Positions 1 to 18,555 of a stretch of 64,000 nucleotides of DNA are shown one piece after another. The stretch spans positions 36,696-100,695 of the forward strand of contig JAZJZX010000004.1 in the NCBI GenBank assembly GCA_040389445.1, in the 5' to 3' direction. Origin of the DNA: Chloroflexota bacterium. Its GTDB lineage: Bacteria; Chloroflexota; Limnocylindria; Limnocylindrales; CSP1-4. A model generated the notes under the pieces. The model was given only the letters and a program-made list of their open reading frames with translations. It made no database searches and was not told the origin of the DNA. The position numbers were made by a program, and so were the translations under genes. Every line of letters starts with the position of its first letter. Within the stretch, counting starts at the first letter, position 1.

Positions 1-804
1 CGCGACGCCACCGCCACCGAAGTCCTCGAACACAACGAAGTGGCGGACGAGATCGAGAAATCGGCGCTTCTCGAACACGCCTTCGAGTACGACCTGAAGC
101 TCACTCAGCGACGCCGGCGCGTCACCGTGCCCTGCGATCGTCCGCCACGGCTTGAACCACTCGCGGCCCGCGCCGATGACGCCAATCCGCGCTTGCGTCC
201 CGTCTGAGGCGACGAGTGCCGCGTTGTACGCGAAGAGCGTTGGGATCTGCGCCTGGTACGTCTCGAGTTGGTGGAACGCCGACCAGATCGTCGTGTTCTC
301 GTCGGCCGGATTCTTCAACTCGATGACCGCCAGTGGCAGGCCATTCAGGAAGACGATGACGTCCGGCCGGCGCGTGTGCTGGCCCTCGGCCAGGGTGAAC
401 TGGTTGACCGCAAGCCAGTCGTTGTTCTCCGGGTCGTCGAAGTCGATCACTCGCGCCTGCGCCCCTGCGATCGAGCCGTCCGGTCGGCGGTACTCCACGG
501 TCACGCCGTCGACGAGCATCCGGTGGAGTGCGTGGTTGCGATCGAGGAGCGTCGGGGCATCGGTCCGGGTCAGCTTCCGGTATACGTCGTCGAGCGCTTC
601 TGGCGGGATTGCGGGGGTGAGGCGTGAGAGCGCCTGGCGGAGCCGGCGCTCCAGGACGACATCGCGGTATCCGGGGTCGGTGCGCTCGGCAGCGGGTTCG
701 CCGAAGGCAATATCCGGCCCATGGAGGACCACGTACCCAAGCTCACCGAGCCATGCCAGGGCAGCATCCTCGACTACCGATTCGGTGAACCCAGCGCCGG
801 TCAC
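1..804 (-). CDS. hsdR: Type I restriction enzyme R subunit (HsdR), N-terminal part. The gene continues beyond the window start.
   Basis: The minus-strand translation from the GTG at 804 reads [29 protein letters not shown]...[19 protein letters not shown]...[32 protein letters not shown]...[10 protein letters not shown]. This is the conserved HsdR N-terminal nuclease/DNA-binding region (compare EcoR124I 'ILVNGLPLVQIELKK'). The frame is open to position 1, and the GTG start overlaps the upstream gene's stop (GTGA). Confidence 0.85.
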
Positions 805-1676
805 TCGGCAGTCTCCCGGGCGCCGTCGAAGGCACGAAGGGCGATCCGAACTGTCTCGACGGCCTCGTTGCGGAGACGTGCTCGCGCCTCAGGATCGCCC
901 GTCACCTCGAGAAACGCCGCGTACGCCGTGGGCGCGTCATTGCGAGCTTCGCTGAACCGGTCGCGAAGGAGTGCGAGCGCCTCGGCGGCAAGAGGATCCG
1001 CGACAACCTGGCTCACGGCCATTTCCCGACCAGAGCCCTCAGGTCCATCCGGGTGGTTCGCGAGGATCCAGATGATGTCGTACGCGTCCTTGTCGTGGTG
1101 TCGATCGAAGAAGGCCGAGATCTTCAGGATCACGAACGGCAGCAGACCGGCCACCCGCACTCTGGCAGTGGCCACGCCGCCGCCGTCGAGCCTCTCGGCA
1201 GCGATCTCCACGAGCTTGTAGTCCAGGCTCACGAGATGGGCTCCATGGACATTGAACGCCTGGAAGCGCGACCCCGACCCAGACCGAGGTTTGAAGCTAA
1301 CACCCGGTTCGACCTTGTCCGTGTCGCAGATGAATTCGAGGATCAGGCTGACGCCGTCGGCCTCCTTGCGCCATCGGAAGTCCGGGTCGTCCACGAGCGG
1401 AGCCTGGCGGAACCCGGCATCCAGGAGGTTCCGCGCCAGCGTCTCGTACGATTTGGAGGTCGGGTCGTCCACCATGAGAATCACGGCAAGGTCGACGTCT
1501 CGGGATCCCACGTGAGCCGGGGCCTCATCGCTGGCGCGACCGTACAGGTACCGGGGCACGAGCCCACCCACAAGATAGAGCCGCCGTCCCCAGAAGCCGG
1601 CGTTCCCGATGACCGTGACGAGCATCCGCTCGCACAGGTCGGTAATGGTCGGGTCGTAGTCCCCCGCGCTGGCCAT
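801..1676 (-). CDS. abiEii: AbiEii/AbiGii-family nucleotidyltransferase, a type IV toxin-antitoxin / abortive-infection toxin-like protein.
   Basis: 291 aa. It has a GG...GSRDVDLAV nucleotidyltransferase motif and the C-terminal K[19 protein letters not shown] signature ((R/K)DhYDh) typical of PF08843/DUF1814. It follows the putative AbiEi gene with a 2-nt spacer, and its stop overlaps the hsdR GTG start. Confidence 0.6.
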
Positions 1677-1678
1677 CG

Positions 1679-2761
1679 TCAGATCCCCAGAACCGACTCG
1701 CGGAAGAACTGCGCCTGCTCCTTGCCACGGCGCGGGTCCCGGAGGGAGTCAAGGTAGATCCGCGTGTCCGCGGCAAGCCAGATCCCGCCCACCACGCGGC
1801 GGAACCGCAGCTCCGCGTCATCCGCACCCTGGACGATCACGAGGTTGGAGCCCTCATCCGTCTGGCGAGCCTCCAGAGCGTGCAGCGCATCGCTCGCCGA
1901 GATGCCGGCGGTCACGCGAACCTGGGTGACCGGAACCGAGGTGAGTGCGGGAGCCAGGATCGCCGCGGCGGCGATCCCCGTGATCGCGTGCGGGATCCCG
2001 GCCCCAACCAGCCGCTCGGAGAGCAGCGCAGCGGTTCGGGCGCCGGGTCGGGTAAGCACGAACGCCGCCGTGCGCCGAGCGCCCCGCTCCTTCTCCTCTT
2101 CGGACCAGAGGTCAAGAAGCGCCCCGGGGTTTGCTATCCGGCGCACCTTGCGGGGGCCGGTTCCCTCGGCGGCCAGAATGGCCGCAGTCTCCAGGCGGGC
2201 GAGCACTCGATGGGCCAGCCCGCTGGACACGCCGGCCTCAGCGGCAATGTCCGCCACGCGCCACGAACGATCCCGATCGAGGAGGAGCGCCTGCGCAATG
2301 AGTCCCGCCTTGCCGGCCAGGCGCGCCTTCACGTGCTCCCGATCGACGATCACTGCGGCGGCGCCGAACGATCCGGTGCGGACGAAGACGCCCGGAAGGC
2401 GGATGGAGGCGTTCCCAAGCCCATCCAGGTACGCGACCCCGTTCGCTTCGAGGATCTGCCGCGCACCTTCGCTCGTGTGTTCAGCGACGAGGATGAAGTC
2501 GCGGCCCTTTGGCGTTCGACGAGCCAGTGCCACGATCGCGTGGGCATTCGCCGCATCTACGCGCCGCTTCGTCTCGAGGACGATCGGGCGAGGCCGGCCC
2601 TCGATACTAATCTCCGCATCTGGCCGAGTTGCCGCGTCGAAACCCGGCTGCGCCCTGATGGCGCTCAGCGCCCACGCTTCGAGAGGGGCGGCAATCTTCA
2701 CTGGAAGTTGGTTCTTCACTGCAGCAGTGAAGATACCTGTTGGAGTGAATATGTCAACCAC
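1679..2761 (-). CDS. abiEi: Putative AbiEi-like antitoxin / transcriptional regulator with an internal HTH, partner of the AbiEii-like gene.
   Basis: 360 aa with a GTG start at 2761. It contains a helix-turn-helix (SWRVADIAAEAGVSSGLAHRVLARLE), and its stop is 2 nt from the AbiEii start. The gene pairing and size match AbiE systems. The 5' ~60 nt are markedly AT-richer than the surroundings. The family assignment rests on context plus weak sequence features. Confidence 0.45.
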   Translation of the reverse strand: MVDIFTPTGIFTAAVKNQLPVKIAAPLEAWALSAIRAQPGFDAATRPDAEISIEGRPRPIVLETKRRVDAANAHAIVALARRTPKGRDFILVAEHTSEGARQILEANGVAYLDGLGNASIRLPGVFVRTGSFGAAAVIVDREHVKARLAGKAGLIAQALLLDRDRSWRVADIAAEAGVSSGLAHRVLARLETAAILAAEGTGPRKVRRIANPGALLDLWSEEEKERGARRTAAFVLTRPGARTAALLSERLVGAGIPHAITGIAAAAILAPALTSVPVTQVRVTAGISASDALHALEARQTDEGSNLVIVQGADDAELRFRRVVGGIWLAADTRIYLDSLRDPRRGKEQAQFFRESVLGI

Positions 2762-2963
2762 TGTCGGCAGGTCGCCAGCGGCTCTCGATCCGCTTGACTG
2801 CCTGGACCGACTCGTCGAAGTCCTGCTCGACGGGCGACGGAAGCGACGCGAGATGGGCGGAGGAGCACTCGGATTCGGACTCGGCCCACGCCACCGCGAC
2901 TTCGTGCGAGACCATGCCGGCTTGTCCCGCAGACCCTTCGAGGGCCGTGGCGCGCGCGCAGGC

Positions 2964-4799
2964 TCATCGCCGCAGAACTCTCACCCGGACCGGTCCCCGC
3001 TCCTCGAACCGCCCTACGAAGTCCGAGTCATCGGCGATGAATCCCCCCAGGTCGTAAACGAGGAACAGGGCGCTTCGCCCCCGATCCGCGTACTTCGGGA
3101 TGTCGGCGAGCATCTCATCAGTCACTTTCCGCACGTCCGACTTCATGCGAACGAGCTTCGCCTCGACGAACAGGTCCGGCTCGTCGGCGGCGTCCCCCTG
3201 CGTCGATCCGCTGAAGTCTGGTCTCGTTCCGACCTGGCCGAAGCTGACGGTCGGGAACTCGCGGTCGAGGTTCATCTTCGCTGCGGTCTGAGCGACGTCG
3301 ATCTGCCTCTGGAGCTCGTCCTCGTTGGATGGCTGGTGGCCAGCGAAGCCTTTCCGGATGGCCGGCGTCACGACCTCGGCGATCCGGTCAGCGAGTCGTT
3401 CCCACGGCTCTCGGCGGTGCTCAAGCTCGCCAATCCTTCTGAGAAGGCCCCCCGTCGGCAGCTTGCCACGTACATAGTCGGGGTGGTTTCGCGTCCAGAC
3501 GGCCTGGTACGCCCCATCGATTTGCTCCGCGTGGCGCTGGACAAGCGCGTAGATCCTTGTGATCTCGTCATTCACATTGCCGGCGACTTGGGCGGCCCGC
3601 CACACGTCCTGCTCCCGCGCGAGATCATCCGGGGTCATGTCGAGCGTGGTCCACGCGAAGCGCAGGTACTGCTCCGCATACATGGCCGGCTCGCCATCTT
3701 TCAACGGGTCCCGAAACAAGTCCACCTGATGCTGCGGACGCTCGATGTCGTCATCCCACCCCGCCGCGATGCCGGCAAAGCGACGGTCGACGCACTGCGA
3801 GCAGGTGCCACAGTGGGGCTGGATCGGCCGCCGGAACATGCCACGCGCGCATGAGACCGTGCGGTGAGCCAAGGCTTCCCCGCCCCGAGTGATGGCTTCC
3901 CTAATCACGTCGGCCTTGGTGCTGTCGGCAAAGGGCGTTTCGACGGTGACCTCGATACCGAGGGCAACGAGGAGCTGGCGATAGAGCCAGAGCGTCTTGG
4001 GGTGCGTCGTCCGCGAGCGCATGGCTCCGACCGACTGGGCCGACTGGGCGAGGTTCAGGCTTGTCACCCCATTTTCCGGCACGATCAACCGATTCAGCCC
4101 GGCCTGCATCGCCACGGCGACGCCAAGGCCGAGGTAGAGCACGCCTCTCGACCGCTGGGTGTAGTCCTGGGCATCGCCCGCTCCGGGACCCCGGACGGTC
4201 TGGAGCGTGGGATTCGGAAAACGCCAGCCCGCCTTCGTCGTTCTGAGAACTTCGAGCACTCCATCCTTGAAGCTCCGGCCCGTGTTCGTCGTCCAGTGGC
4301 TCGCGAGGATCGGCCGTTCGCCGTCGTCGACGAGACGAAGCGCGCCAGCGAGCGAGTCAAGGCCGCCCGAGAAGAGCGAGACGCACGTTGGATCATCGCC
4401 GCCGGCCGCAACAAGATCGAGCTTGAGTTGCTCGTCGGCCTGGCCCCGGCGGAATTCGAATGTCCAGGAGTCGTCTGTCGCGAACTCGAGCACTGCCGTC
4501 AACTCGTCGCGGACCGCGTTCCACCGGTCTGGCTCGTGAACGGGCACGTGCAGCGCGAGCTCCCGGCGCCAGTTCTTGGCGAGCGGATCCCGCTTCCGCG
4601 CCCGCGGCACAGCTCCGTCTGCGAGGAAAACGTAGGCGGCGACAGTCAACAGGTCCCGGACCAGGGGCAGGAGTGTCCTCGCGGCGGACTTCTCGACGCC
4701 GGTGACGTTGAGCACGACCTGGCGGTTTGGCGGTGATGGATCGAGCGTCACGGAGGCGCCCGACACGGTAGGCGGTGGTCCGCAGTGGATGACCGTCAT
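2964..4799 (-). CDS. QueC-like PP-loop ATPase (7-cyano-7-deazaguanine-synthase-like fold) with a unique N-terminal extension and a C-terminal PD-(D/E)xK restriction-endonuclease-like domain. Candidate defense effector or modifier.
   Basis: 611 aa. It has the PP-loop VSLFSGGLDSLAGA (SGGxDS) and a QueC-type zinc site C-x12-C-x2-C-x2-C (SCARGMFRRPIQPHCGTCSQCVDRR). The C-terminus carries ...TRPDFSGS...DEPDLFVEAKLVR, giving a PD...EAK nuclease motif. Its ATG overlaps the stop of the upstream 254-aa gene (ATGA). Confidence 0.6.
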   Translation of the reverse strand: MTVIHCGPPPTVSGASVTLDPSPPNRQVVLNVTGVEKSAARTLLPLVRDLLTVAAYVFLADGAVPRARKRDPLAKNWRRELALHVPVHEPDRWNAVRDELTAVLEFATDDSWTFEFRRGQADEQLKLDLVAAGGDDPTCVSLFSGGLDSLAGALRLVDDGERPILASHWTTNTGRSFKDGVLEVLRTTKAGWRFPNPTLQTVRGPGAGDAQDYTQRSRGVLYLGLGVAVAMQAGLNRLIVPENGVTSLNLAQSAQSVGAMRSRTTHPKTLWLYRQLLVALGIEVTVETPFADSTKADVIREAITRGGEALAHRTVSCARGMFRRPIQPHCGTCSQCVDRRFAGIAAGWDDDIERPQHQVDLFRDPLKDGEPAMYAEQYLRFAWTTLDMTPDDLAREQDVWRAAQVAGNVNDEITRIYALVQRHAEQIDGAYQAVWTRNHPDYVRGKLPTGGLLRRIGELEHRREPWERLADRIAEVVTPAIRKGFAGHQPSNEDELQRQIDVAQTAAKMNLDREFPTVSFGQVGTRPDFSGSTQGDAADEPDLFVEAKLVRMKSDVRKVTDEMLADIPKYADRGRSALFLVYDLGGFIADDSDFVGRFEERGPVRVRVLRR

Positions 4800-5560
4800 G
4801 AGGCGCGCGTGATCTCGTCCGCGATCTTCCGCATCGCCACCGCGGCCACGCCTTCAGTCCGATCCAGGCCACCGAGCCATTGACGCTTCGAGTACCAGGC
4901 GCCGGCGAAGTCCTCGACGATTCGAGCCGCCTCGGATGCGTAGCGATCGACGCCATCGGTGAACAACTGAATCTCTGCCTCGGATCGGAGCCGTCCGTCG
5001 CCCCCGAGGAGATTGGCGGCCTCGTGGTCGGTGAAATACCGGAGCGAGCGGGAGAGGAGCCGGGCAAAGAACAGGTGGGCGAGCTGCGCGAAGCCTCGCT
5101 CGGTTGAGAACGAGTGGTAAGCCTGCCGCGCATCGTCCAGCCCGGAGAGGAAGAGGCTGCCGGTCTGCGACGTGATGGTCCGGGTCAGCGACTCCTGGAG
5201 AGCGCCGAGAGCGAACTCCGTGAAGATCGTTCGCTGACTCGTCGGTCCGAACCGGTTCTCGGCCTCGCGCAGGACGTTCCCGAGAAGACCCAGGGCATCT
5301 TCGTTGCCCGTCACGGTGAAGCCGTAGCCGCGCAGGGCTTCGGCGAAGTCATCGCGACGTGACGCATCGGCCAGGAGCGCCATCACCCGGAGGCTCTCCA
5401 CGACGCCTGGGTCTTCGCCAGCCGCACGATAAGCCTTCTCGGCTGCGCCAACGACAGCGCGCGCTACGGTTCCGACGTCCACGTCAGGATCGTCCATGAG
5501 CCGGACGACGTGCGACCAGCGTCGCGTCTTAGGGAGCTCGCCGAGGCGAATGTGCCCCAT
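4796..5560 (-). CDS. Hypothetical all-alpha protein of ~254 aa, translationally coupled between hsdS and the QueC-like gene. Possible QatB-like partner or substrate.
   Basis: The ORF has protein-like composition. Its ATG at 5560 shares one base with the hsdS stop (TGATG), and its stop overlaps the QueC-like ATG (ATGA). No recognisable catalytic motif. After removal of the initiator Met the N-terminus is M-G-H... Confidence 0.5.
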   Translation of the reverse strand: MGHIRLGELPKTRRWSHVVRLMDDPDVDVGTVARAVVGAAEKAYRAAGEDPGVVESLRVMALLADASRRDDFAEALRGYGFTVTGNEDALGLLGNVLREAENRFGPTSQRTIFTEFALGALQESLTRTITSQTGSLFLSGLDDARQAYHSFSTERGFAQLAHLFFARLLSRSLRYFTDHEAANLLGGDGRLRSEAEIQLFTDGVDRYASEAARIVEDFAGAWYSKRQWLGGLDRTEGVAAVAMRKIADEITRAS

Positions 5561-6896
5561 CAACCGACCCCGTGGCTTTCGCGCCGCGACCCGAGTGTGC
5601 GCACGGAGCGTTCCTCTTGACTTCGGGAGATGTGCAGTACGCCCGAGATCAGGTCTGGTAGCAGCGCGTCGCGCAGGGCGGCGAGAGTTCGGGATTGCGC
5701 AGTCATCATCGACGCCTGTTCGAGAAGACGGTGGACCACGGTTCCAAAGAGCCGGGCAACTTCGGACGACGGGGACACGGCGAGGAAATAGGACAGGGAC
5801 TCTGCTGGCACCCGCTGTCGACCGCTGGAGCCCGTCATGCTCTGGATCGCGAACTCCCGAAACTCATCGCTACGCGCCAAGCAGTAGGCGTACTCGGTCG
5901 GAAGCGGGGGCTCTGCGCGGAGGACGATGTACTCGGTTGAGCCCCAGCCAACCTGGCCAGGCTCGAGGAAGTCAACGTATGCAGTCTTGCCGTTCTCGAG
6001 ACACGGCGTGATCCGGGCGACCAACGTATCCCCGTTCTGGAAACGCATTCCCGAACCGAAGGGGCGATCAACCACAGCGTCTGGCGAGTGGCCGCGAGTC
6101 GGCATGTTGGCCATGTCCAGGTATGGCGCGACAACGCCCTTGCGCAATGAGCGCGGCGGGTTGACCTTCACGACCGCAGGCAGCGGCGCCAATCGCCAGC
6201 CCGTCGGGATCTCCCCAAGCTCCGAGTCCTCGAAGGAACCCGGGAACAAATCGGCGAGGTGGGGTGGGAGGCCGGGGTCGCGGCCTTCGGACTTGGCGCG
6301 GACGGGGTCGAAGTCGACGAACCAGGACTTGAAGAGGGCCCGCGCGATCGCCTCGAGGGCCTCGCTCATCCGGCGGTTCAGCTCGATCTTGTCGTCCAGC
6401 GTGCCGAGGATGTGGGCGATGCGGCGCTGCACCCTATCAGGCGGTAATCCGAACCGGAAGCCAAGTAGCCGTTCCTTCGACAGGTTCATGATCGCCGTGC
6501 CTACTGCGTACGCTTCGATGCGCTCACGGAAGTCGGCCGATTGCAGGACGTAGCCGAGGTATGCCGGGTCAATCCGGTCAGGTTTTGGCCGGATTGCGGC
6601 ACAGAATGCTCCGACGCACCCGTCCCACGTTTGGCGCAATGGGGCGAGACGACCAACAGCCTTGCGGCTACCACTCGACATCGCAATCACGACGTCGAAA
6701 CGGCGCAAGTGCTGTGCTTCTCGGACGAGACGCGTCGGGACGTAGATGACATTGGCGAGATCCAGAGTGTGATCCCCGATGTTCGTGGCGCGCAGCAGTG
6801 GTACCGCGCCCGTGGACTCAGTTGCGAGCTCGCTGGGACGGAAGTTGACGCCACGCACAAGATCGGCAACTTCGCCGAGCTGAACCTCACCCTCAG
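5560..6896 (-). CDS. hsdS: Type I restriction-modification specificity subunit (HsdS).
   Basis: The sequence [24 protein letters not shown]...[16 protein letters not shown]...[26 protein letters not shown]... shows two target-recognition domains plus conserved HsdS repeats. The likely GTG start at 6896 overlaps the hsdM stop (GTGA). The ORF track's longer 542-aa version has a low-complexity N-terminus that overlaps hsdM and is probably not translated. Confidence 0.85.
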
Positions 6897-8443
6897 TCAC
6901 CGAAGCCGAGCTCCCGCAGGTTCGCATCGATGAGCGCGTCGAGCCGCTGGCCCTCGGCGACCTGTTCGCGTAAGGTCGCGCCAAGCCTCGCCATCTTCTC
7001 GTCGAACGGCTCGGCGTCCTCCTCGGTGGCGGCAGCGCCGACGTAGCGGCCGGGGGTAAGCACGTGACCGTGCTTGCGGATCTCGTCGAGCGGGACGGAC
7101 CGGCAGAAGCCGGGCACGTCGGCGTACTCGCCGGCGCCCTCGTCGCCGCGCCAGGCGTGGTAGGTACCGGCGATCGTCGCCACGTCATCGTCGGTCAGTT
7201 CGCGGTGCGTTCGATCGACGAGCGAGCCCATCTTCCGGGCGTCGATGAAGAGCGTCTCGCCGCGGCGGTCGCGGAAGCGGCCGTTGCGCCGGTCGCGGGC
7301 GAGGAACCAGAGGCAGACCGGGATCTGGGTCGAGTAGAAGAGCTGGCCCGGCAGGGCGACCATGCAGTCGACGAGGTCAGCCTCGATGATCGCCTTGCGG
7401 ATCTCGCCCTCGCCCGACTGGTTGGTCGACATCGAGCCGTTGGCGAGGACGAAGCCGGCGATTCCGGTCGGCGCGAGATGGTGGATGAAGTGCTGGACCC
7501 AGGCGAAGTTCGCGTTGCCCGCCGGCGGCTCGCCGTACACCCAGCGCTTGTCGCCCTTCAGGAGTTCGCCCCGCCAGTCGCTGTCGTTGAAGGGCGGATT
7601 GGCCAGGACCCAGTCGGCCTTGAGGTCCGGGTGGCGGTCGTTGTGGAAGGTGTCGCCGTGGGCGATCTGGGCGTCGATGCCGCGGATCGCGAGGTTCATC
7701 GCGGCCAGCCGCCAGGTCGTGTAGTTGGACTCCTGGCCGTAGATGCTGATGTCGCCGAGCTTGCCCGCGTGGGCCTCGATGAACTTCTCGCTGCTCACGA
7801 ACATCCCACCCGAGCCGCAGCACGGGTCATACACGCGGCCCTTGTAGGGCGCCAGCATCTCGACGAGGATCCGGACGACGTGCGACGGCGTGTAGAACTG
7901 GCCGCCCTTCTTGCCCTCGGCGCTCGCGAACTGGGCGAGGAAGTACTCATAGACCCGACCGAGCGTGTCCTTCGCCCGGTCGGCGGGGGCTCCCAGCGCG
8001 ATGTCGGAGACGAGGTTGATGAGCTGGCCGAGGCGCGCCTTGTCGAGGCCGGGCCGGGCGTAGTCCTTGGGCAGCACGCCCTTGAGGGTCGGGTTGTCCC
8101 GCTCGATGGCGGCCATCGCGTCGTCGACGAGGGTGCCGATCGTGGGCTGGGGAGCGCTCGCCTTCAGGTGCGTCCAGCGGGCTTCCCTGGGGACCCAGAA
8201 GATGCTGACGGCCCGGTACTCGTCGGGGTCCTCGGGGTCGGCGCCAGCGGCGCGGTCGGCCTCGAGTTCGGCGTGCTTCGCCTCGAAGGCGTCGCTGATG
8301 TACTTCAGGAAGATCAGGCCCAGGACGACGTGCTTGTACTCGGCCGCGTCCATGTTGTTGCGCAGGGCGTCGGCGGTCTGCCAGAGGCGCGCCTCGAAGC
8401 TAACGGGAGCGGCGGTGTCCGGGCGGCCGGAGCCCCTTGCCAT
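6893..8443 (-). CDS. hsdM: Type I restriction-modification N6-adenine DNA methyltransferase (HsdM).
   Basis: 516 aa. The N-terminus reads [39 protein letters not shown], it carries the NPPFN catalytic motif, and it has a SAM-binding fold. Its ATG shares one base with the upstream DUF262 gene's stop (TGATG). Confidence 0.95.
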
Positions 8444-10728
8444 CAGATCCCCCCTCCAGCGACATCCGCAGGCCCCGCGTACCCCACAGCCACGAGCCGC
8501 TGCCTGGCCCGGTGGAGCGCCTCCTCGGAGAACAGGCCCTGAAACTCGGGACGAAGCGCCTGCGCTTCAACGGACAGGTCGAGGCGACCCTTTGACCAGA
8601 GTGCGACGAACCCCTCAGATGGGTCCGTGGCCTGTAGGAGTCGCTTGGCCGTTTCGAGACCTCCAATATCGGAGACCATCGACAGGAACCGCGACGCGTT
8701 GTATCCCGCCTCGCGCTTGGCTCGGTCGTGAACCTCGAGCATCGCCTGGTGGAAACGTTCAGCGGCAGCGGTTGAAGGCTCCGGCGCGACCTCCTCGGCT
8801 GAGGCAAGCTCCGGCGGCGCCATGAGGTAGCGCTTGAACGCGTCGGGCGTGGTGAAGACTCGGTATCCCAAGGCCGCGAGTCGACTGACTGCGGCGTCCT
8901 CGGCCTCGAACTCGAAAACGACTGGGTCGCTCAGACCCTCCTGGACTCCGTTCGGCCAGACGAGATCACCTACGATAATCAGCTCCTGAGTCTCGGGATC
9001 CGCGATCTCCTGGTCCACGTTGGGTTGAGAAATACCTTGTTGCCCAATCCAGGCCAGCAGCTCCGTCACGACTGGGTCCATCGCCTCCGCGACGTCTGGG
9101 GCGGCGCCAAGCTCCAGCTCGAGCGCTGTGTCGACGGGTGCGCCGGCCGCAGGATGGAGGAGATTCTCGAGCACGTGATTCGCTGCATCCGCCAGAAGGG
9201 CGCGCCTCGCCGCCAAAAAGTCCCGATACCGATCCACTTCCCACAACTGCTCGTCCATCGGGATCCACTGTGACTCGAGAGCCCCGGGATAGTCTGTGGC
9301 GATCTTCCGGAAGTAGTCGCGCGGCGCGCTGTCACTGATCGCGATGTTCGTGTCCTTCGTCAGGAAGCAGAAATTGGCGAGCGCGTTCACTTCGGATCGC
9401 TGGTAGTCGTGGCGATACAGGTGGGCCTTCGGGAAGATGTGGTGGATCTCGAGGGCTGCCCCCTTTCCGAGCATTCCGGCGGACAGGACTGGAAATGGTG
9501 CGCCCCAATCCCGTGCCCCTTGCATCCGCGTGAGGAGATACAGCATCGGGTAGAAGCGAGCGCCAAGGCTCCAGCCGGAGAAGTCAACGTCCCGAACGGT
9601 TAGGTCACCTCGCGAGAGCCGGATCTGTTGGATCAGGCGATCGATCGACGCCTCCGTACCATCGACGAGGTCCAGGTCCTGGTTCAATACCGTCTCAACA
9701 GAGCCGGCAAATCGGCCCCACAGGAAGCTCTGGATGTACCAGTACAGCAGCTTGTCCTGCTCGATCGCGCTGTGGAACTTGCCTCCGCGTGTCGACAAGT
9801 ACCGAGTCATCACCGGGAACGCGTACCGCCCACCAAGGACGCGGTCATGGTCCAGTCCAAGACGCGCGCCAATGACGTTCAGCAAGACATTCGCGGATTT
9901 CGTCGCGTTCTTGAGACCCTCCTGGAATTCCGATGTGGTCACTCCAGTAAGGGCGGCGAACTTCGCTTCACCGGCTACGATCGTGGTGATGTTGCGGAGA
10001 AGCCAGTCGAGCTGGAAGTGGAAGCCACGGTCCGACCAGTACCGGAGGACCTTCTTCATCTCGTCGCGTGCGTCGGGCCACGACGCGCAGATCCGGGCGA
10101 GGGCGAGATCACCTTTCGAGAGCTTGGTGCCCCCACTGTTCACTCGATTGAAGATGTCGACAACCACCTCGATCGTCTTGTCCTCACCGACGACCTTCTC
10201 GACGTGGAACTCAATGTCTTTGACAGCGTCAAGCCGCGTCAGCCGATTGACGTAGTCCCCGGCGCGCAAGCTCAGGTCCGGGTTTTCGAAGACAGCCTTG
10301 ATCGACTCGGCGACCCCCTCCGTCATCAGCTGCGTGACGCTGATCCAGCGGGGGTTGCCCTTCATCTTTGCCGGCGCGTAGAACTCGAAGACCTCGTCCT
10401 CGATGTCGAAATGCAAGCCGGTGAAGGCGCTGGCGTCGCCGTCGAAGAACCGCGGGGCACGGCCGCGGATGATTCCGTACAGGGTCGTGACGCGTTGCTG
10501 GCCATCAAGCAGAAGGTCAACAGTGCCGGCGGCAAGCATCCCGCCACCTCGCACGTCAGCCACCTCGGTCGGCGTCACCCAGACCATGAGACTTCCGACC
10601 GGATACTTCCGGTAGAGGGACGTCATGAGCCCCCGAACCTGGTCGCGGTTCCAGACGTAGCCACGCTGGAACTCGGGCAGGGCGATGGATCCAAGGTCGA
10701 TCTGGCTCAGGATGGTCCGGACGTCCAT
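8443..10728 (-). CDS. GmrSD-family Type IV restriction enzyme-like protein (DUF262 ParB-like NTPase domain plus DUF1524 HNH/His-Me nuclease domain).
   Basis: The N-terminal motif is [16 protein letters not shown] (the DUF262 QR-x-x-W motif) and the C-terminal motif is [13 protein letters not shown] (DUF1524/HNH-like). The likely start is ATG at 10728, with AAAGGA 5 nt upstream; the ORF track extends to 10890 through an unconvincing N-terminus. The gene is translationally coupled to hsdM. Confidence 0.8.
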
Positions 10729-10807
10729 GCGTATCCTTTCTGCAATGTCACGTAGGGTACGGCGCGTCGTGCCGGACACACGGATTGTCCTGACGAAGCG
10801 TCGATCG

Positions 10808-11776
10808 TCATTCGCGGACGTCTCCGTCTCGTCTTCGGTCGAATAGGATTTCGTAATCGCGCTCGGTCCAAAGCTCACCCCATCGATCACCTGTCTCGAT
10901 CGGCGCGATGTCGTTGCCGATCAGTCGCTCAACGTCGCCGCCGTAACTAGAGATGTTGTAGAGGCGAGTCTGTACGCGGAGCATCGCGCGCAGGCCATCC
11001 GTGACGATCGGCAATCGCCGATCGAGGTCGACCGCAAGAAACTCGACCGGCAGGATGTGACCGAACCGCTCATTGAAACGCCGGGGGGCGTCCATCGCGT
11101 ATTGGTATGAGCCCGTTACGCGAAAGACTGATAGTCGGCCCCACTCTGGCAGGTTCGGAGCCACGACAACGTCACCGAGCCGCATTCCGTCGTGTGCCGA
11201 TGTTCGCATCCGCCGCGACCGCCACGTCATCCGCTGCTCGTCGCTGAGCTCGCCTCCACGACGGACCACCTCGGCGACCACGTCGAGGTTCATCTCGGGG
11301 TTCCAGCCCCAGCCCTGGCGAAGGCGTCCGCGTTGGGCCTCGGCCCAAATGTAGGGCCGCTCCCAGGGGCTAGTTCGCATCACCCAGTACCCGCGACCTG
11401 CGAGCCCCGGAGTTCCCATTGGCCTCGCGCTGACGGGCGCGCGGGAGCCCGCTCGGGGCGCCGATTTCGGGCGCCCGAGTGCTGCGAGAGCACCGTCGAC
11501 GTCCCCAGCGAGATGCGATGGGAGCTCCTCCCGGTCGACCGTTCCAAATACACCGAGGACCGCATTACGAGTAGCGGGATTGCGCCCTATTCGCTCGAGC
11601 ACACGGATCGCGAACGCTGCAAGTCGCTCGTCGCCGAGCCAATCAGTCATCGCATCGATAGCCATCTCGCCGTGTGCAGCGATCGCATCACGAAGCTCGA
11701 TCCGCGCCATCGAGTCAGCCTCTCGGGCACTCGCGAGCAGGTCGTCCAGTGCTGCTGTGGTCATCGGTAGCCGCAT
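10808..11776 (-). CDS. Hypothetical 322-aa protein first in the defense array: a helical N-terminal half, a low-complexity linker, then a YW-rich C-terminal domain that could be a PUA/EVE-like modified-base reader.
   Basis: Complete ORF with varied amino-acid composition (W/Y/F rich: GYWVMRTSPWERPYIWAEAQRGRLRQGWGWNPEM...). It lies 80 bp upstream of the GmrSD-like gene on the same strand. The fold assignment is speculative. Confidence 0.4.
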   Translation of the reverse strand: MRLPMTTAALDDLLASAREADSMARIELRDAIAAHGEMAIDAMTDWLGDERLAAFAIRVLERIGRNPATRNAVLGVFGTVDREELPSHLAGDVDGALAALGRPKSAPRAGSRAPVSARPMGTPGLAGRGYWVMRTSPWERPYIWAEAQRGRLRQGWGWNPEMNLDVVAEVVRRGGELSDEQRMTWRSRRMRTSAHDGMRLGDVVVAPNLPEWGRLSVFRVTGSYQYAMDAPRRFNERFGHILPVEFLAVDLDRRLPIVTDGLRAMLRVQTRLYNISSYGGDVERLIGNDIAPIETGDRWGELWTERDYEILFDRRRDGDVRE

Positions 11777-12251
11777 AGTGAACGCGCCCCGGACTCCCGC
11801 CGTCTGGTCGCCGAGGACATTGCGTGTTCCTGGTGCACTGGGGCCATCACGCTGGAATCATCCCGACGGGCCGTGCCATCTCTGGTGTCACATCGAGCAC
11901 GATGTCCCGCGCGGCGACCTTCTCATCGTGTCGAAGTCGAAACAGCAGCGTGCGCAGCGCCTCCAGCGCCTCGGCCGGCGTCGAGACGTCGATGACCTCC
12001 GGCGCTCGACCACGAGCCGCTCGGCCCTCGCGCCGGCGCGCTCATCAAGCGATTCCACCACCGGGGCGTCAGCCATCAATCCCAACCCTCCCCTCGTCGG
12101 GTTCGGTGCCACGCGCGCGCTCCCGGGGAGTGTAGCGGGGCGGGGTGGCGCGATGCTGGCCTCGTGGAGCAAGGCCTCGCCAGGTCCGGGTTACTCGAAC
12201 GGTGCCACGGACGTTCCTGGACGCGCCCAGCGTCTGCGGGGCCGCAACCCG

Positions 12252-13454
12252 CTACTTGACGATCGTGATGGCCTTCTGGGCCGAGGTCGACCCGTACTGC
12301 GTGGTTGCGACGAGCACGGTGGCCAGCCCACCGCCGACGGTCACGTCCTTCGGCAGCGTGGTCGTGAAGGTCGCGCGGCCGTCGCCGCCCGACACCGCGT
12401 CCTTCGAAATCGGCGGGATCCCCGGAACGGTGAGGGTGAAGGTGATGGTGGCGCCGGGAAGCGGCGCGCCGTCGGGATCCAGCACCAGGACGGTGAGCTG
12501 GATCGACACGGGCAGCGAGCTCGTGGAGATCCGGTAGGCCGATGCCGTCAGGGTCGAGCTGAGCGCCCCGCTCCCGCGGACCACGGACAGGGCAAGTTCG
12601 CCCGGATTGCCCGCCGGATCGCGCGCCGTGATCGTGATCGCGTTCGTCCCGTTCTCGAGGGGCAGTTCCAGCGCGAATGCCCCGTCGCTCCCCGTCTGGC
12701 CCGAAATCGACGTGCCGTTCGTGGCGTTCCGGGCCAGCAGGGTCGTCCGCGGCTGGGTCGTGCCGGTGAGCGTGGCCGTCGCACGATTGACGGTTGCCCC
12801 GTCCTTCGGCGAGGTCAGCACGATCTTCGGCGGGTCCGTGTCCAGGATGAAGGTCACGATCGGTGAGGGCTCGGACTCGATGCCGCCTTCCACGATCGTC
12901 GCGTGGAAGTCGTTGCGACCCTGGGTCAGCTCCACCGGAACCACCATCCTGATGGTGCTGCCCATCGGGACCTCAGAAATCGGCGCCGGCGCCTGCCCTT
13001 CCAGCGTCAGGTAGATGCGCAGCCGTGCCGCCGTGTTGCCGACCTGTGCCGACGGCACCGTGACCTGCAGGTCCGCGGTGGGCAGGTTCGTGTACGGCTC
13101 GGTCGGGAGGGCGATGACCGGGGCGTCCGCTGCCACCAACTCGGTCGCGGTCGGTTGCGCGGTGGCCGTGACCCTGTCGATGAACCCCGTTACCGAGGTC
13201 GACAGGGCTCCAACGAGGACGCCGACGCCGCCGCCGGCCGTCATGAATACGGCACCGCCGAGGACGACGAGGGCGACGACGAGCAGCATCCGGGCCGCGA
13301 ACGGGACCCCTCGTCGACGACCTCCGAGACCCTTGGCCTTCTTGAGCCGATACGCGTCGGGCGCGCGCACGCGGACACGCTGGGGCTTCGGGCGGCCCGT
13401 GCTGGGGGGGCGGGGCCGAACGTGAGACGAGCTGGCTCCGCGTCGGGTCGGCAT
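12252..13454 (-). CDS. Membrane-anchored protein with bacterial Ig-like (Big) domains.
   Basis: 400 aa. It has a basic N-terminus followed by a hydrophobic anchor (MLLVVALVVLGGAVFMTAGG), then Thr/Ser-rich beta-type repeats (LTSPKDGATVNRATATLTGTT...NGTNAITITARDPAGN) typical of Ig-like domains. Confidence 0.55.
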   Translation of the reverse strand: MPTRRGASSSHVRPRPPSTGRPKPQRVRVRAPDAYRLKKAKGLGGRRRGVPFAARMLLVVALVVLGGAVFMTAGGGVGVLVGALSTSVTGFIDRVTATAQPTATELVAADAPVIALPTEPYTNLPTADLQVTVPSAQVGNTAARLRIYLTLEGQAPAPISEVPMGSTIRMVVPVELTQGRNDFHATIVEGGIESEPSPIVTFILDTDPPKIVLTSPKDGATVNRATATLTGTTQPRTTLLARNATNGTSISGQTGSDGAFALELPLENGTNAITITARDPAGNPGELALSVVRGSGALSSTLTASAYRISTSSLPVSIQLTVLVLDPDGAPLPGATITFTLTVPGIPPISKDAVSGGDGRATFTTTLPKDVTVGGGLATVLVATTQYGSTSAQKAITIVK

Positions 13455-13858
13455 CGGTGCCTATGGTCGCATGGATGGGACCATGGCCGGCGGGAGCGTC
13501 AAGGTGCGGTGTACCCTGCTGCAATCCGGAGGGGTCCGGACGGTTGGGTTCGGCATCGGGAGGGAGCACTTGGACGGACGCGATCTGCGTTCGGCACGGC
13601 CGGTCCGTGTGGCGCAGGAGGCACGGCGCCGCGACGGGCGTCCCGTGTTCGGACTGGGTCCGATTGCCCGGGTACCCACTCTGGCCGCCCTCAACGCACC
13701 CGGCTGGCCCGTTGGACCCGGCCGTGGGCAAGGCGCCGGCGAGGTCGGCCGACGACCGGAAATCCATGGTGGCGCCCAGCGATCGGGTGCCGAAACGGCT
13801 CGCGCGCGAGCCTTCGGGCTTCCGAACCTGCGCCGCAATGTCTGCCCCCACTTCTACA

Positions 13859-14052
13859 TGACGGGCATGCGCGGCGCGATCCCGATCCACGCCCCGCACC
13901 TCCTGAAGGCGCTGGTCCGCCAGGATGCAACGACCTCGCGCTGCCAGTTGCGAGGGGGCGTCCATCTCGAGCAGAACTACGTCAACGACGTCTGCCTCTC
14001 GCCGCGTTTCAACCAGTGCATCTTCTACGAGGAAGACCTGTCCGCGGGTTGA
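13859..14052 (+). CDS. Possible small Cys-containing hypothetical protein (~64 aa from the ATG at 13859). The upstream extent is unclear.
   Basis: The last ~65 codons of ORF 13471..14052 (MTGMRGAIPIHAPHLLKALVRQDATTSRCQLRGGVHLEQNYVNDVCLSPRFNQCIFYEEDLSAG) have ~85-90% GC at third positions, consistent with coding. The upstream portion of that ORF has non-coding-like third-position composition. Confidence 0.2.
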
Positions 14053-14094
14053 TCTTCCCGCTCCGCGAGATCAACCACCGGGCCACCACCAAGC

Positions 14095-15456
14095 ATGGAT
14101 GCCATCGACGGGCGGGCGTACCACGGGGCCGTTCGCGCCCTTGAAGCTCGAGGCCGATTCGGGATCCGATTGGGCCTTGGTCGGACCCGTGCCCTGCTGC
14201 ACGCCCTGGGTGATCCGCAGCTGGCGTTTCGTGGGGCGCTGGTGGGCGGGACCAACGGCAAGGGCAGCGTCCTGGCGCTTGCGGGCAGCGCCCTCCGCGC
14301 GGCAGGTTCACGGGTCGGGGAGACACCCAAGCCGCATCTCGTCTCGTACCGCGAGCGACTGGTCATCGACGGGAAGCCGGTCGACCCGGGCACCTTCGCG
14401 CGGCTCGTGGCCGAGGTCCTCCCGCTCGCCGATCGGGTGGCGCGGCGGCACGGTGAACCGACTGAATTCGAGCTCCTGACCGCGGTCGTCTTTCAATGGT
14501 TTGCCGAGTCGGGCGTGGAGGTGGCCGTCGTGGAGGTGGGGCTCGGTGGCCGCCTCGACGCGACCCATGCCTGGGACGGCGGTGTCGCCGTGATCACCAA
14601 CGTCGCGCTCGATCACATGGATCGCCTGGGCGGCACGATCCCGCTCATCGCCCGTGAGAAGGCCGCGATCATCGAACGCGGCGACCTTGCCGTGACGGGG
14701 GCGGACCCGCCGGCCCTCGAGGTCATTCGACGGCGGGCGCGACGGATGGGCGCCCCACTGCGGGAAGTGCCGCCGGCGCCGTTGCTCCGTGTCGGGCGGG
14801 ACGGCATCGATGTCGTGCTCCCGACCCTCGGCCAGACCCACGTCGCCCTCCGAGGGCGGCATCAGGCGGCCAACGTCGCGGTCGCCGACGCCACGCTTGA
14901 CGCGCTTGCTGCGGCGGGAATCGCAACGGTCGGTCCCGAGGATCGGCGTCGAGGCTACGAGCAGGCCGTCTGGCCCGGTCGCCTCGAGCTGATTCGGGCC
15001 GGCGGCCGCGACGTCCTGCTCGACGGTGCGCACAATCCGGCCGGCGCCGCGACACTCGCGACCGCGCTGGACGACCTGCGGCCCGTCCTGACCGGCGGTG
15101 ACGAGGCAAGCCCCCCGCCGCTCACGCTGGTCGTGGCGTCCATGGAGGACAAGGACGTCGATGGGACCATCGGGGCCATCCTGACCGCAGCAGCCATGGA
15201 TGGGGCCGTGGTGATCTGCACGTCGCTGGACCTGCCGCGCGCCCTCCCGGCGGCGTCGCTGGCCGCTCGGTGGCACGCCGCCGCGCCGGGCCTGGAGCTC
15301 AGGGTCATCCCGGATCCGGGGGAGGCCCTCGATCTGGCGCTCGCGACGGCACCGGGTCCGGTGATCGTCGCCGGGTCGCTGTACCTTGTCGGCGACGCGC
15401 GCAACCGGCTCGTGGACGATTCGAGCTCCCGCGACCCCGAGGATTCGCCCGCATGA
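14095..15456 (+). CDS. folC: Bifunctional folylpolyglutamate synthase / dihydrofolate synthase (FolC).
   Basis: 453 aa with the P-loop GGTNGKGS, a Mur-ligase-family fold and the DHFS/FPGS motifs. The stop overlaps the folP ATG (ATGA). Confidence 0.9.
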   Translation: MDAIDGRAYHGAVRALEARGRFGIRLGLGRTRALLHALGDPQLAFRGALVGGTNGKGSVLALAGSALRAAGSRVGETPKPHLVSYRERLVIDGKPVDPGTFARLVAEVLPLADRVARRHGEPTEFELLTAVVFQWFAESGVEVAVVEVGLGGRLDATHAWDGGVAVITNVALDHMDRLGGTIPLIAREKAAIIERGDLAVTGADPPALEVIRRRARRMGAPLREVPPAPLLRVGRDGIDVVLPTLGQTHVALRGRHQAANVAVADATLDALAAAGIATVGPEDRRRGYEQAVWPGRLELIRAGGRDVLLDGAHNPAGAATLATALDDLRPVLTGGDEASPPPLTLVVASMEDKDVDGTIGAILTAAAMDGAVVICTSLDLPRALPAASLAARWHAAAPGLELRVIPDPGEALDLALATAPGPVIVAGSLYLVGDARNRLVDDSSSRDPEDSPA

Positions 15457-16934: not shown

Positions 16935-18479
16935 TCAGAGGTTGGCCGGACGCGTCCCGAGCGTCAGCGAGAGCGTGATCGTCTCCGTTCCCCGGACGAT
17001 CCGCAGTTCGACCGTCTGACCCGGGGAAAAGCCGGCGAGGACGAGGTCGAGCGGGTGCTCGGCATCGACGTCCTGGCTGCCGACGCCGATGATGATGTCG
17101 CCTTCCCTGACGCCGGCCTTGTCCGCCGGACCGCCCTTGACAACCGCATCCTGCGTACCGCCCGAGGCGTCCTGGGCGCGGCTCACGAGCGCACCCCTGT
17201 CCTGCGAAAGCCGGTCCCGCGCCTGGACCTGGGGCGTGATGGGCTCGTAGCGGATGCCGATGTAGGGCCGGGCGAGCGGCTGTCCGGCAAGGGCCTGCTG
17301 CATGATCGGGCGGGCGATGTCGATGGGAATGGCGAACCCGATCCCGTTGGAGCCGGTTGCAACGGCGGTGTTGATGCCGATGACGTCGCCGATGGCATCG
17401 AGCAGCGGTCCGCCGCTGTTGCCGGGGTTGATGGCCGCATCGGTCTGGATCAGGTTGTTCAGGCGATCGCCGCTCTGCACGGTCACGGAACGGCCGGTCG
17501 CGGACACGATCCCGGAGGTGACCGAGTTCGAGTACGTCCCCAGCGGGCTGCCGATTGCCACGGCGAGCTGGCCGACCTGGAGATCCGCCGATACGCCGAT
17601 CGTGGCGGCCGTCAGGCCCGAGGCCGTGATCTTCACGATCGCAAGGTCGGTGAGGGTGTCGATCCCGTAGACCGTCCCCTGGTACTGATGCCCATCCTTG
17701 ACCTCGACGACCACCGACGACGCGGTCTGGCCGTTCGAATCCGTGACGACGTGGCGGTTGGTGAGGATCCAGCCGCCCGCATCGAAGATGATCCCGGAGC
17801 CGACACCCTGCTCGGGGATCGAACCGCCGGCCGGATCCGCAACGGTCCCGGAGACGAGAATCCGGACGACGGCCGGACCGGCTTTCGCAGCGGCCGCGAT
17901 GACGGCCGACGATTCGTCGATCGTGACCGGAACGCGAGCGCCGGCGGTCGTGATCGGCGAGATGCCCGGCTGGGGCCCGGCGCCGTCGAGCGCGCCACTT
18001 GCGCGCAGGAAGGCGAAGGTCCCGCCGCTGGCGAGGACGGCCGACAGGACGGCGGCAGTCACGATCGATCCGACGCCCGCCTGGCGAGGGCCACGCTTCG
18101 TGGCAGCCGCCGCAGCGGCCGCCGTGGCCGCAGCCGCCGCAGCCTCGGCGGCATCCCAGGCCTCCGGCGAGGGCGCGCCGGGCGGAAGGGCCGGCCCGTC
18201 CTGCCACGCCGAAGCGGCCCACCCGGGTCGATGCTCACGCTCGGGCGCAAATGACGCGGTCGGGGCCTCCTCGAACGGGGATGCGGCCACAGCCGCAGCG
18301 GCGCCCTCGGGTTCGGCCGTCGGCGCGGTGGCGTCGGCCGCCGCGAAGTCAGCGCCGGCCGCCGGGAGGTCTGCGCCGGCCGCCGGGAGGTCGGCGCCCT
18401 CGGGTTGCGCCGCCGGCGCGGTGGCGTCGGCGGCTGGAAGGTCGGCGGCCTGGTCGTCTGGCTCGTTGGGGGTTGTCAT
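16935..18479 (-). CDS. HtrA/DegP-family serine protease with a PDZ domain (PepD-like), with an N-terminal low-complexity region and a membrane anchor.
   Basis: A trypsin-like S1C core (ILTNRHVV ... TDAAINPGNSGGPLLD) is followed by a C-terminal PDZ region. The N-terminus has Ala/Pro-rich repeats (ADLPAAGADLPAAG) and a hydrophobic helix. The gene lies immediately downstream of the two-component system. Confidence 0.85.
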   Translation of the reverse strand: MTTPNEPDDQAADLPAADATAPAAQPEGADLPAAGADLPAAGADFAAADATAPTAEPEGAAAAVAASPFEEAPTASFAPEREHRPGWAASAWQDGPALPPGAPSPEAWDAAEAAAAAATAAAAAAATKRGPRQAGVGSIVTAAVLSAVLASGGTFAFLRASGALDGAGPQPGISPITTAGARVPVTIDESSAVIAAAAKAGPAVVRILVSGTVADPAGGSIPEQGVGSGIIFDAGGWILTNRHVVTDSNGQTASSVVVEVKDGHQYQGTVYGIDTLTDLAIVKITASGLTAATIGVSADLQVGQLAVAIGSPLGTYSNSVTSGIVSATGRSVTVQSGDRLNNLIQTDAAINPGNSGGPLLDAIGDVIGINTAVATGSNGIGFAIPIDIARPIMQQALAGQPLARPYIGIRYEPITPQVQARDRLSQDRGALVSRAQDASGGTQDAVVKGGPADKAGVREGDIIIGVGSQDVDAEHPLDLVLAGFSPGQTVELRIVRGTETITLSLTLGTRPANL

Positions 18480-18555
18480 GCTGGATCTGCGCTCACGATG
18501 CTCACCGGGTGGAGACCCGGTCGCAATCGTGGCGCCCGGATCCTGAGGACGCCGC

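Follow-up and report, generated by a model that had tools for sequence, protein, structure and literature searches.

The stretch analyzed here comprises 64,000 nt of the metagenome-assembled genome of an uncultured Chloroflexota bacterium (contig JAZJZX010000004.1, positions 36,696 to 100,695; hereafter, the window), and its first 11,776 nucleotides carry a Type I restriction-modification locus in which several other genes are embedded. Two of these, p5 and p6, form a cassette that resembles part of the Qat anti-phage system and is the main subject of what follows. Reading of the whole window placed nine minus-strand open reading frames (ORFs) in this region, each with homologs or family matches, showing that they are genes rather than chance ORFs. 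We label the genes of the array p1 to p8, with hsdM, hsdS and hsdR keeping their own names (Table 1); their NCBI locus tags run from V4515_03695 to 03730. Large plus-strand ORFs of the region, which lack support from homology, are taken for antisense ORFs, which are common in high-GC DNA. Although hsdR is cut at the window edge, an exact-protein look-up retrieved a 31-kb contig with the identical locus (L001), on which this gene is intact.

Table 1. Genes and other features of the array, in window coordinates
Feature	Position	Strand	Remarks
hsdR	1..804	-	first 268 codons only, cut at window edge; complete on contig L001 (1051 aa)
p8, AbiEii-like nucleotidyltransferase (putative toxin), 291 aa	801..1676	-	
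p7, AbiEi-like winged helix-turn-helix protein (putative antitoxin/autoregulator), 346 aa from GTG 2719	1679..2719	-	longest ORF 1679-2761
Promoter/operator of p7-p8(-hsdR), predicted	2713..2763	-	conserved DNA motif
3'-terminal relic of a RhuM-family gene, in p6-p7 gap	2754..2924	-	tblastn
p6, QatC-like (QueC-family) enzyme with C-terminal PD-(D/E)xK nuclease domain, 611 aa	2964..4799	-	
p5, QatB-like all-helical partner, 254 aa from ATG 5560	4796..5560	-	
hsdS, Type I specificity subunit, 446 aa	5560..6900	-	
hsdM, Type I N6-adenine methyltransferase, 516 aa	6893..8443	-	
p2, DUF262/GmrSD-like protein (PADLOC HEC-05 type), 761 aa	8443..10728	-	GAAAGGA Shine-Dalgarno-like site at ATG 10728
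p1, HEAT-repeat plus EVE/YTH-like (PUA-fold) reader protein, 318-322 aa	10808..11776	-	

The original prediction, made from the sequence alone, had described nine same-strand genes, and all are present where it placed them. Its account of the junctions holds in part. The gap between p1 and p2 is real and measures 79 nt (10729–10807) rather than 80; that between p6 and p7, given as 203 bp, is 202 nt when counted from the GTG of the longest ORF (2761) and 244 nt from the supported GTG (2719). All other junctions were said to overlap, and stop/start overlaps of 1–8 nt are indeed found elsewhere, except that p7 and p8 are separated by a 2-nt spacer. There is a 4-nt overlap between the hsdR start (GTG) and the p8 stop, and one of 1 nt between the p2 stop and the hsdM start.

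The Type I genes are unambiguous. HsdM matches Pfam N6_Mtase (E = 7e-106) and HsdM_N (E = 5e-26) and PADLOC MTase_I (E = 7e-211), and HsdS matches PADLOC Specificity_I over residues 5–427 (E = 1.5e-112) and Pfam Methylase_S (E = 2e-10). The part of HsdR within the window matches Pfam HSDR_N (E = 4e-46) and PADLOC REase_I (E = 5e-63); the full protein on L001 contains HSDR_N, ResIII, SWI2_SNF2, T1R_D3-like and T1RH-like_C domains. The locus thus has the HsdM, HsdS and HsdR domains that define a Type I restriction-modification system.

Residues 44–356 of p6 match the QatC structure 9vlk_A in the Protein Data Bank (PDB; E = 5e-37), and p6 matches PADLOC QatC (E = 3e-57). We scored residue conservation among 23 homologs of 28–66% identity. 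The SGGLDS loop, the Cys cluster and D49, the catalytic Asp, are invariant, WxR, RxRxxxY, HP, the TK of P(x)4TK and the RR that follows the Cys cluster are invariant or nearly so, and DxWxxxF and ExG are conserved as well; these conserved residues follow the list of QatC motifs in PMC13329287. The C-terminal 250 residues hold the invariant set E514, D528 and E546-x-K548, which is the PD-(D/E)xK signature, and many homologs match Pfam REase_DpnII-MboI (PF18742). These data argue that p6 is a QatC homolog, over residues 44–356, joined to a PD-(D/E)xK nuclease domain. The fusion of a QueC-like domain and a nuclease that had been predicted here is thereby borne out; the neighboring ‘254-aa unknown’ and the fusion together look like a QatB/QatC-type module.

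That neighbor, p5, belongs to a family of 254–262-aa proteins without a Pfam family. Its members share the N-terminal pattern M-G-H-x-R-x-G-x-L-P-x-x-x-x-W, in which M1, G2, H3, R5, P10 and W15 are invariant. In the AlphaFold2 model (mean predicted local distance difference test score, pLDDT, 86), p5 consists of 11 helices preceded by 12 residues without regular secondary structure (residues 1–6, pLDDT <50). Apart from a designed helical-repeat protein, the best PDB match of this model in Foldseek is QatB (9y01_A, probability 0.99, template modeling (TM) scores 0.46/0.52), and all other matches have TM scores of 0.33 or less. The order and overlap of p5 and p6 are those of qatB and qatC. We do not claim homology by sequence profile: alignment of the p5 family to five canonical QatB proteins from plasmid qatABCD loci (hhalign) gave a result too weak for this, with a probability of 12% and P = 0.0024, and QatB hidden Markov models (HMMs) matched only 1 of 30 members of the p5 family. 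Direct PDB sequence searches with p5, p7 and p8 returned nothing useful. Taken together, p5 is best described as a QatB analogue, and probably a distant homolog, rather than as a member of the QatB family. Public annotation hides this cassette, since p6 is named as a queuosine-pathway enzyme (‘7-cyano-7-deazaguanine synthase’, 595 aa) and p5 is truncated to 228 aa, dropping the invariant Met-Gly N-terminus and with it the key glycine.

The cassette is widespread. In 79 of 80 species-representative loci, the QatC-like gene is immediately preceded by a p5-like ORF, usually with a 4-nt overlap, and the one exception starts at a contig edge. These loci span Chloroflexota, Planctomycetota, Bacteroidota, Cyanobacteria, Proteobacteria, Nitrospirota and others. 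The nuclease C-terminus is present in 57 of the 80; the remainder have other C-terminal domains, some of them DNA-binding helix-turn-helix (HTH) domains and most without a family match. A sister set of QatC-like proteins (P0042-P0120; L051, L056-L058, L063-L065, L073-L076, L078-L082, L085-L091) keeps the QatB-like partner and carries, in place of the nuclease, Trans_reg_C, sigma-70 region 4 or 200–350 residues without a family match. The effector end of QatC-like proteins looks modular.

The settings of the cassette vary: some copies adjoin Tn7-like tniB/tniQ genes, some are surrounded by housekeeping genes, and some belong to other Type I loci of different arrangement. One of the latter, the proteobacterial L070, has the order hsdM-hsdS-cassette-(Mrr-STAND)-hsdR; its hsdS-hsdR slot (12144–14486) holds a Qat-like cassette and then a protein with Mrr_cat and nSTAND3 NTPase domains (Avs-like). 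The cassette also adjoins hsd genes in L007, L021 and L045. It is a self-contained, mobile two-gene unit found mostly outside Type I loci. Neither a QatA-type KAP-family NTPase nor a QatD-type TatD-family nuclease occurs among the nine genes, on L001 or in the other cassette neighborhoods inspected; p6 carries the PD-(D/E)xK domain instead of the latter. Our literature searches, whose coverage was incomplete so that an earlier description is possible, found no account of a QatC-nuclease fusion or of this cassette, and no report of a Qat-like cassette between hsdS and hsdR. The cassette thus appears to be a two-gene relative of Qat that has not been described before.

Comparison with related loci, a check called for by the original prediction, fixes the insertion points of the defense cargo between hsdMS and hsdR. 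Two loci, L178 and L179, have the order p2-hsdM-hsdS-217aa-hsdR, with p2 at least 90% identical to that of the window and with no p1, p5, p6, p7 or p8. Nucleotide homology to these loci (84–86%) starts 9 nt before the p2 ATG and spans p2 and hsdM, the p2-hsdM block being 85.7% identical and the HsdM proteins of the window and L178 sharing 92% of their amino acids. Within hsdS, homology is confined to the central part, and it returns at hsdR. Because only the central conserved region of hsdS matches, its target-recognition domains differ from those of L178/L179. Given these breaks in homology and the gene content, p1, p5, p6, p7 and p8 lie outside the L178 backbone. The hsdS of L179 is intact; that of L178 is broken into two ORFs (227 and 198 aa).

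A second comparison uses the relatives of p8. In the eight closest, hsdR follows p8 with an overlap of 4–13 nt, and hsdM and hsdS lie upstream, beyond a slot, X, of variable content. The arrangement hsdS-X-p7-p8-hsdR is seen in L098, L099, L104, L105, L106, L124 and L125, and L101 has X-p7-p8-hsdR on a contig that ends before any hsdS. Across these relatives, the slot contains DUF4268 (once with an insertion sequence element), PIN plus an unknown gene, RhuM, Mrr-AAA, DUF4145 or a p1-like protein. Homology of the slot-bearing relatives, L098 and L099 among them, to the window locus begins at 2763. Around this point, 2754–2924 matches residues 210–264 of the L105 RhuM with 58% identity (tblastn, E = 2e-17) and the L105 RhuM gene, which fills the same slot, with 72.9% nucleotide identity over 155 nt. 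The 53-codon ORF it includes (2754–2915) is what is left of the C-terminal end of a RhuM gene and hence the scar of an earlier cargo. Its presence beside the cassette shows a replacement of older cargo, and three comparisons (the L178/L179 backbone, the p8-relative loci and the RhuM relic) indicate that the Qat-like cassette replaced RhuM cargo between the hsdS stop (∼5560) and 2763, leaving the 3' end of the older gene behind. More generally, recombination appears to exchange the cargo that occupies the slot from the hsdS stop to the p7 promoter.

Defense genes inside Type I loci are well known, PrrC in EcoprrI and restriction-linked ORFs being examples. As in those cases, the cargo here lies on the same strand between hsdS and hsdR and varies among otherwise near-identical backbones; what differs is that the cargo is a Qat-like cassette, for which any physical or regulatory coupling to the Type I enzyme would be hypothetical. 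The architecture had been called unusual, a description that does not survive the comparison, as the same slot carries other cargo in each relative of this lineage.

The p7-p8 pair is AbiE-like, as first proposed. GG37-38, D60xD62, K185, K196 and D200 are invariant in p8, which has the motifs GG/DxD and K..R...KD..D (1025 cluster representatives), and 23 of 41 p8 relatives match AbiEii (best E = 8e-9). In the p7 family, 18 of 24 members match winged HTH (wHTH) profiles and 7 of 24 match AbiEi_2 (best E = 2.6e-4). In p7 the HTH occupies a central position; weak Mrr_cat/NucS_C matches in 2 of 24 members hint at a degenerate nuclease-like fold for the N-terminal domain that precedes it. Like AbiE, the pair is bicistronic, joins a wHTH protein to a DUF1814-type nucleotidyltransferase with the same motifs, and has promoter repeats. 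It differs in being a distant subfamily, in the central position of the p7 HTH and in the overlap of the p8 stop with the hsdR start in the closest relatives. In 72 of 73 loci, p7 is the gene immediately before p8, and in 60 of 68 loci the pair occurs alone. Its AbiE-like character stands, but it is no newly inserted accessory: the closest relatives retain the pair, translationally coupled to hsdR.

Within the p6-p7 gap lies a promoter/operator that is conserved across the p7-p8 family. The start of p7 at GTG 2719 is set by the family alignment and by conservation of the upstream DNA, where a −35 element (TTGACA, 2757–2752) and a −10 element (TATCTT, 2735–2730) are accompanied by a perfect 9-bp inverted repeat (2733–2725/2721–2713) that spans the −10 element and the GTG start. 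The motif TTGACA, TTCAC repeat, TAT(A/C)TTCAC, seven bases, GTGAA is kept in 22 of 24 p7-family loci, whether the reading frame is open or closed. For this reason we rejected an N-terminal extension of p7 (IFT..IFT) as coding sequence and read the conservation as that of a DNA-level operator. Terminator-like sites were found in neither gap and are not enriched in the region. These data suggest that p7-p8-hsdR is probably a transcription unit of its own, that its p7 mRNA is probably leaderless and, by analogy with abiE, that p7 probably represses the promoter. The abiE promoter likewise has repeats and is autoregulated. Read-through from upstream of p7 is possible, and it is unlikely that the array forms a single simple unit, the ‘one transcription unit’ that had been envisaged.

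Upstream of hsdM, p2 matches GmrSD_N (PF03235) over residues 4–213 (E = 1.9e-26) and PADLOC HEC-05 over its full length (E = 5.7e-43), in agreement with the GmrSD-like protein proposed earlier. With GmrSD/BrxU-type enzymes it shares the N-terminal DUF262, the full-length HEC-05 match and a His-Me-like HHIFPK motif. Unlike them, it has a marginal GmrSD_C match (PF07510, E = 0.03, 14.6 bits against a cutoff of 23), an additional C-terminal region of ∼240 aa (window 8446–9171) in which no Pfam family was found even at E = 1, and the 1-nt overlap into the hsdM operon. We regard p2 as a Type IV-like add-on that appears to be translationally coupled to hsdM. The G+C content is ∼61% over this gene (8500–11000) compared to 65–70% in the rest of the island, which is consistent with separate, recent acquisition; measured as a whole, the island has 61–67% G+C, and 70–75% is reached further into the window.

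The leader of the array, p1, had been put forward as a possible reader-domain protein. It does combine HEAT repeats with the PUA-like β-barrel fold of EVE/YTH readers, although it has no Pfam or NCBIfam match at E = 0.01, and it is not part of the backbone, homology to which starts only before p2. Relatives of p1 are numerous and well conserved. In two loci they directly precede a gene for a ∼1230-aa UvrD-helicase plus PD-(D/E)xK protein (L180, 2230–7081; L181, 7001–11601); the L180 pair lies beside bacteriophage exclusion (BREX) genes and the L181 pair beside a methyltransferase/ResIII pair (Type III-like genes). Another relative lies in a toxin-antitoxin cluster. The EVE/HEAT plus UvrD-nuclease pair may be a separate two-gene modification-dependent system. 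Because the UvrD-nuclease partner is missing here and a homology breakpoint separates p1 from p2, p1 reads as an orphan or independent gene, and it probably comes from another system. A p1-p2 reader-nuclease pair was rejected as the default, as p1 is missing from the nearest p2 backbone and its relatives have another partner gene. An association of standalone EVE or ASCH proteins with Type I systems has been described (Bell, Wolf and Koonin 2020, PMC7641849), and p1 resembles such proteins in being a PUA-fold reader gene that adjoins Type I genes; it differs in its N-terminal HEAT-like domain, in having no Pfam EVE match, and in that its relatives are usually paired with the UvrD protein rather than with Type I genes.

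Beyond the window, L001 carries three further genes 3' of hsdR (17316–19742), encoding a 219-aa protein, an HTH_3 plus Peptidase_M78 (ImmA/IrrE-like) protein and a 223-aa protein, followed by a uracil-DNA glycosylase gene on the opposite strand. Because L178 backbone homology stops at the hsdR stop, the three are read as probably more island cargo. Flanking direct repeats and tRNA genes, the marks of an integrative element, were searched for and none was found, and an Rfam scan of the whole window identified no RNA family.

We consider it likely that the region is a mosaic defense island built on a Type I operon, with cargo swapped at one slot, a Qat-like cassette as the current occupant, a promoter of its own for p7, an add-on p2 and an orphan p1. 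The backbone runs (p2)-hsdM-hsdS-[cargo slot]-(p7)-(p8)-hsdR. p7, p8 and hsdR would be transcribed from their own conserved promoter, and as the three share it, HsdR would be co-expressed with a toxin-antitoxin-like pair. The alternative is that all nine genes constitute one integrated, interdependent system expressed as a single operon, in which the EVE reader and the GmrSD-like protein could, for instance, guide the Type I enzyme while the Qat-like and AbiE-like genes act as back-ups that fire when it is inhibited, like PrrC in EcoprrI. The shared strand and mostly overlapping stops and starts, the translational coupling of p8 to hsdR and of p2 to hsdM, the persistence of p7-p8-hsdR linkage across the eight closest relatives, and the recurrence of the cassette right after hsdS in L070 and beside hsd genes in three other loci are all in line with such a system. 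So is the presence of Type I genes within 10 kb of 6 of the 32 fully flanked cassette loci, a count that is a lower bound owing to detection by phmmer and stands without a defense-gene baseline. Against this, the L178 backbone does without five of the nine genes, the modules occur independently (the cassette alone in most of its 80 loci, p7-p8 alone in the large majority of theirs, relatives of p1 paired with a UvrD-nuclease or set in toxin-antitoxin islands), the RhuM relic points to recent replacement of cargo, and a conserved internal promoter splits the array. The cassette’s linkage to Type I genes is typical island behavior and not obligate. We therefore think the integrated system unlikely.

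The mosaic reading has its own weak points. The match of p8 to Pfam AbiEii (E = 0.0011) falls below the cutoff, and p7 itself matches the AbiE family only below the Pfam cutoff. Moreover, the p7 promoter (2757–2730) is the only sigma-70-like match in 1–12400 and lies on the array strand, a number of matches at chance level given the mean of 0.9 matches per 12.4 kb in shuffled DNA. Hence, the significance of the promoter comes from its position and conservation, not from the match count.

How might the cassette work? For all of the biochemistry, regulation and anti-phage activity considered here, homology and gene context are our guides. QatABCD is an established anti-phage system (Gao et al. 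2020), and structures of QatBC are available (PMC13279940, PMC13376578, PMC13639016). QatB has an essential MGTS N-terminus and binds QatC 1:1, and QatBC alone can defend (PMC13279940). The cassette matches this system in the SGGxDS loop, Zn-Cys cluster and QatC-specific motifs of p6, and in the ∼255-aa helical partner encoded upstream with overlapping stop and start and a conserved Met-Gly N-terminus. It differs in having neither QatA nor a separate QatD, with the PD-(D/E)xK domain fused to QatC instead, and in the p5 motif, MGH-R-G-LP---W as opposed to MGTS. In Type IV cyclic-oligonucleotide-based antiphage signaling systems (CBASS), the QueC-family enzyme Cap9 targets the N-terminal glycine of the adjacently encoded cGAS/DncV-like nucleotidyltransferase (CD-NTase), and this provides a precedent for the reaction proposed for p6. 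The cassette, however, has no CD-NTase, Cap10/TGT or cyclic-nucleotide effector, and Cap9 has the canonical QueC active site whereas the site of p6 is of the remodeled QatC type.

Because deazaguanylation has been shown for Cap9 and proposed for QatC, p6, with its SGGLDS loop and Zn-Cys cluster, may use ATP to place a modification on the glycine exposed at the p5 N-terminus. This modification would in turn control the nuclease fused to p6, a stand-in for the separate QatD. Our proposal, put forward tentatively and as possible rather than probable, is that p5-p6 is an autonomous, phylum-spanning two-gene defense system whose enzyme, by modifying its partner at the N-terminal glycine, switches on the nuclease fused to itself. 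Certain points speak against the Qat-like reading of the cassette. The match of p6 to NCBIfam QatC (E = 7e-62, 209.6 bits) is under the equivalog cutoff of 280; only ∼12 residues precede the first helix of p5, compared to ∼70–100 in canonical QatB; and the QatC reaction still awaits reconstitution in vitro.

It is very doubtful that p5-p6 is instead something other than a protein-modifying system, namely an enzyme of 7-deazaguanine metabolism or DNA modification, or a Type IV-like nuclease that senses deazaguanine-modified phage DNA: the Pfam QueC match (E = 1e-7), the NCBI name, the suitability of a nuclease fusion in a restriction setting for a modification-dependent enzyme and the use of 7-deazaguanines by phages against restriction (cited in PMC13329287) would fit, but the QueC match covers only the Zn-ribbon end (profile positions 146–203), QatC is by far the best match, the conserved residues are the QatC-specific set and not the canonical YxQxHxxE/VPxRN/YPDC, the island has no queD/queE/tgt-like genes, and a partner with an invariant glycine, retained in nearly every locus, would be needless for a metabolic enzyme or a simple reader-nuclease.

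The island as a whole adds one more example to a known pattern, and what deserves further study is the Qat-like nuclease cassette. The set of Type I backbones that are nearly identical yet differ in cargo, together with the RhuM scar, illustrates cargo exchange at one slot, and the array suggests that a restriction subunit can come under the promoter of a toxin-antitoxin-like pair. In recent structural papers, the reaction of QatC and the way in which QatBC stops phage are still open. A natural two-gene version, with a fused nuclease and a short partner N-terminus, offers a simpler system for mass spectrometry, mutagenesis and structure determination. If p5-p6 does act as proposed, the effector would reside in the same polypeptide as the enzyme and be swapped in sister clades, providing a minimal model for QatC chemistry, and its repeated landing directly after hsdS could mean that the cassette guards the Type I enzyme against phage anti-restriction.

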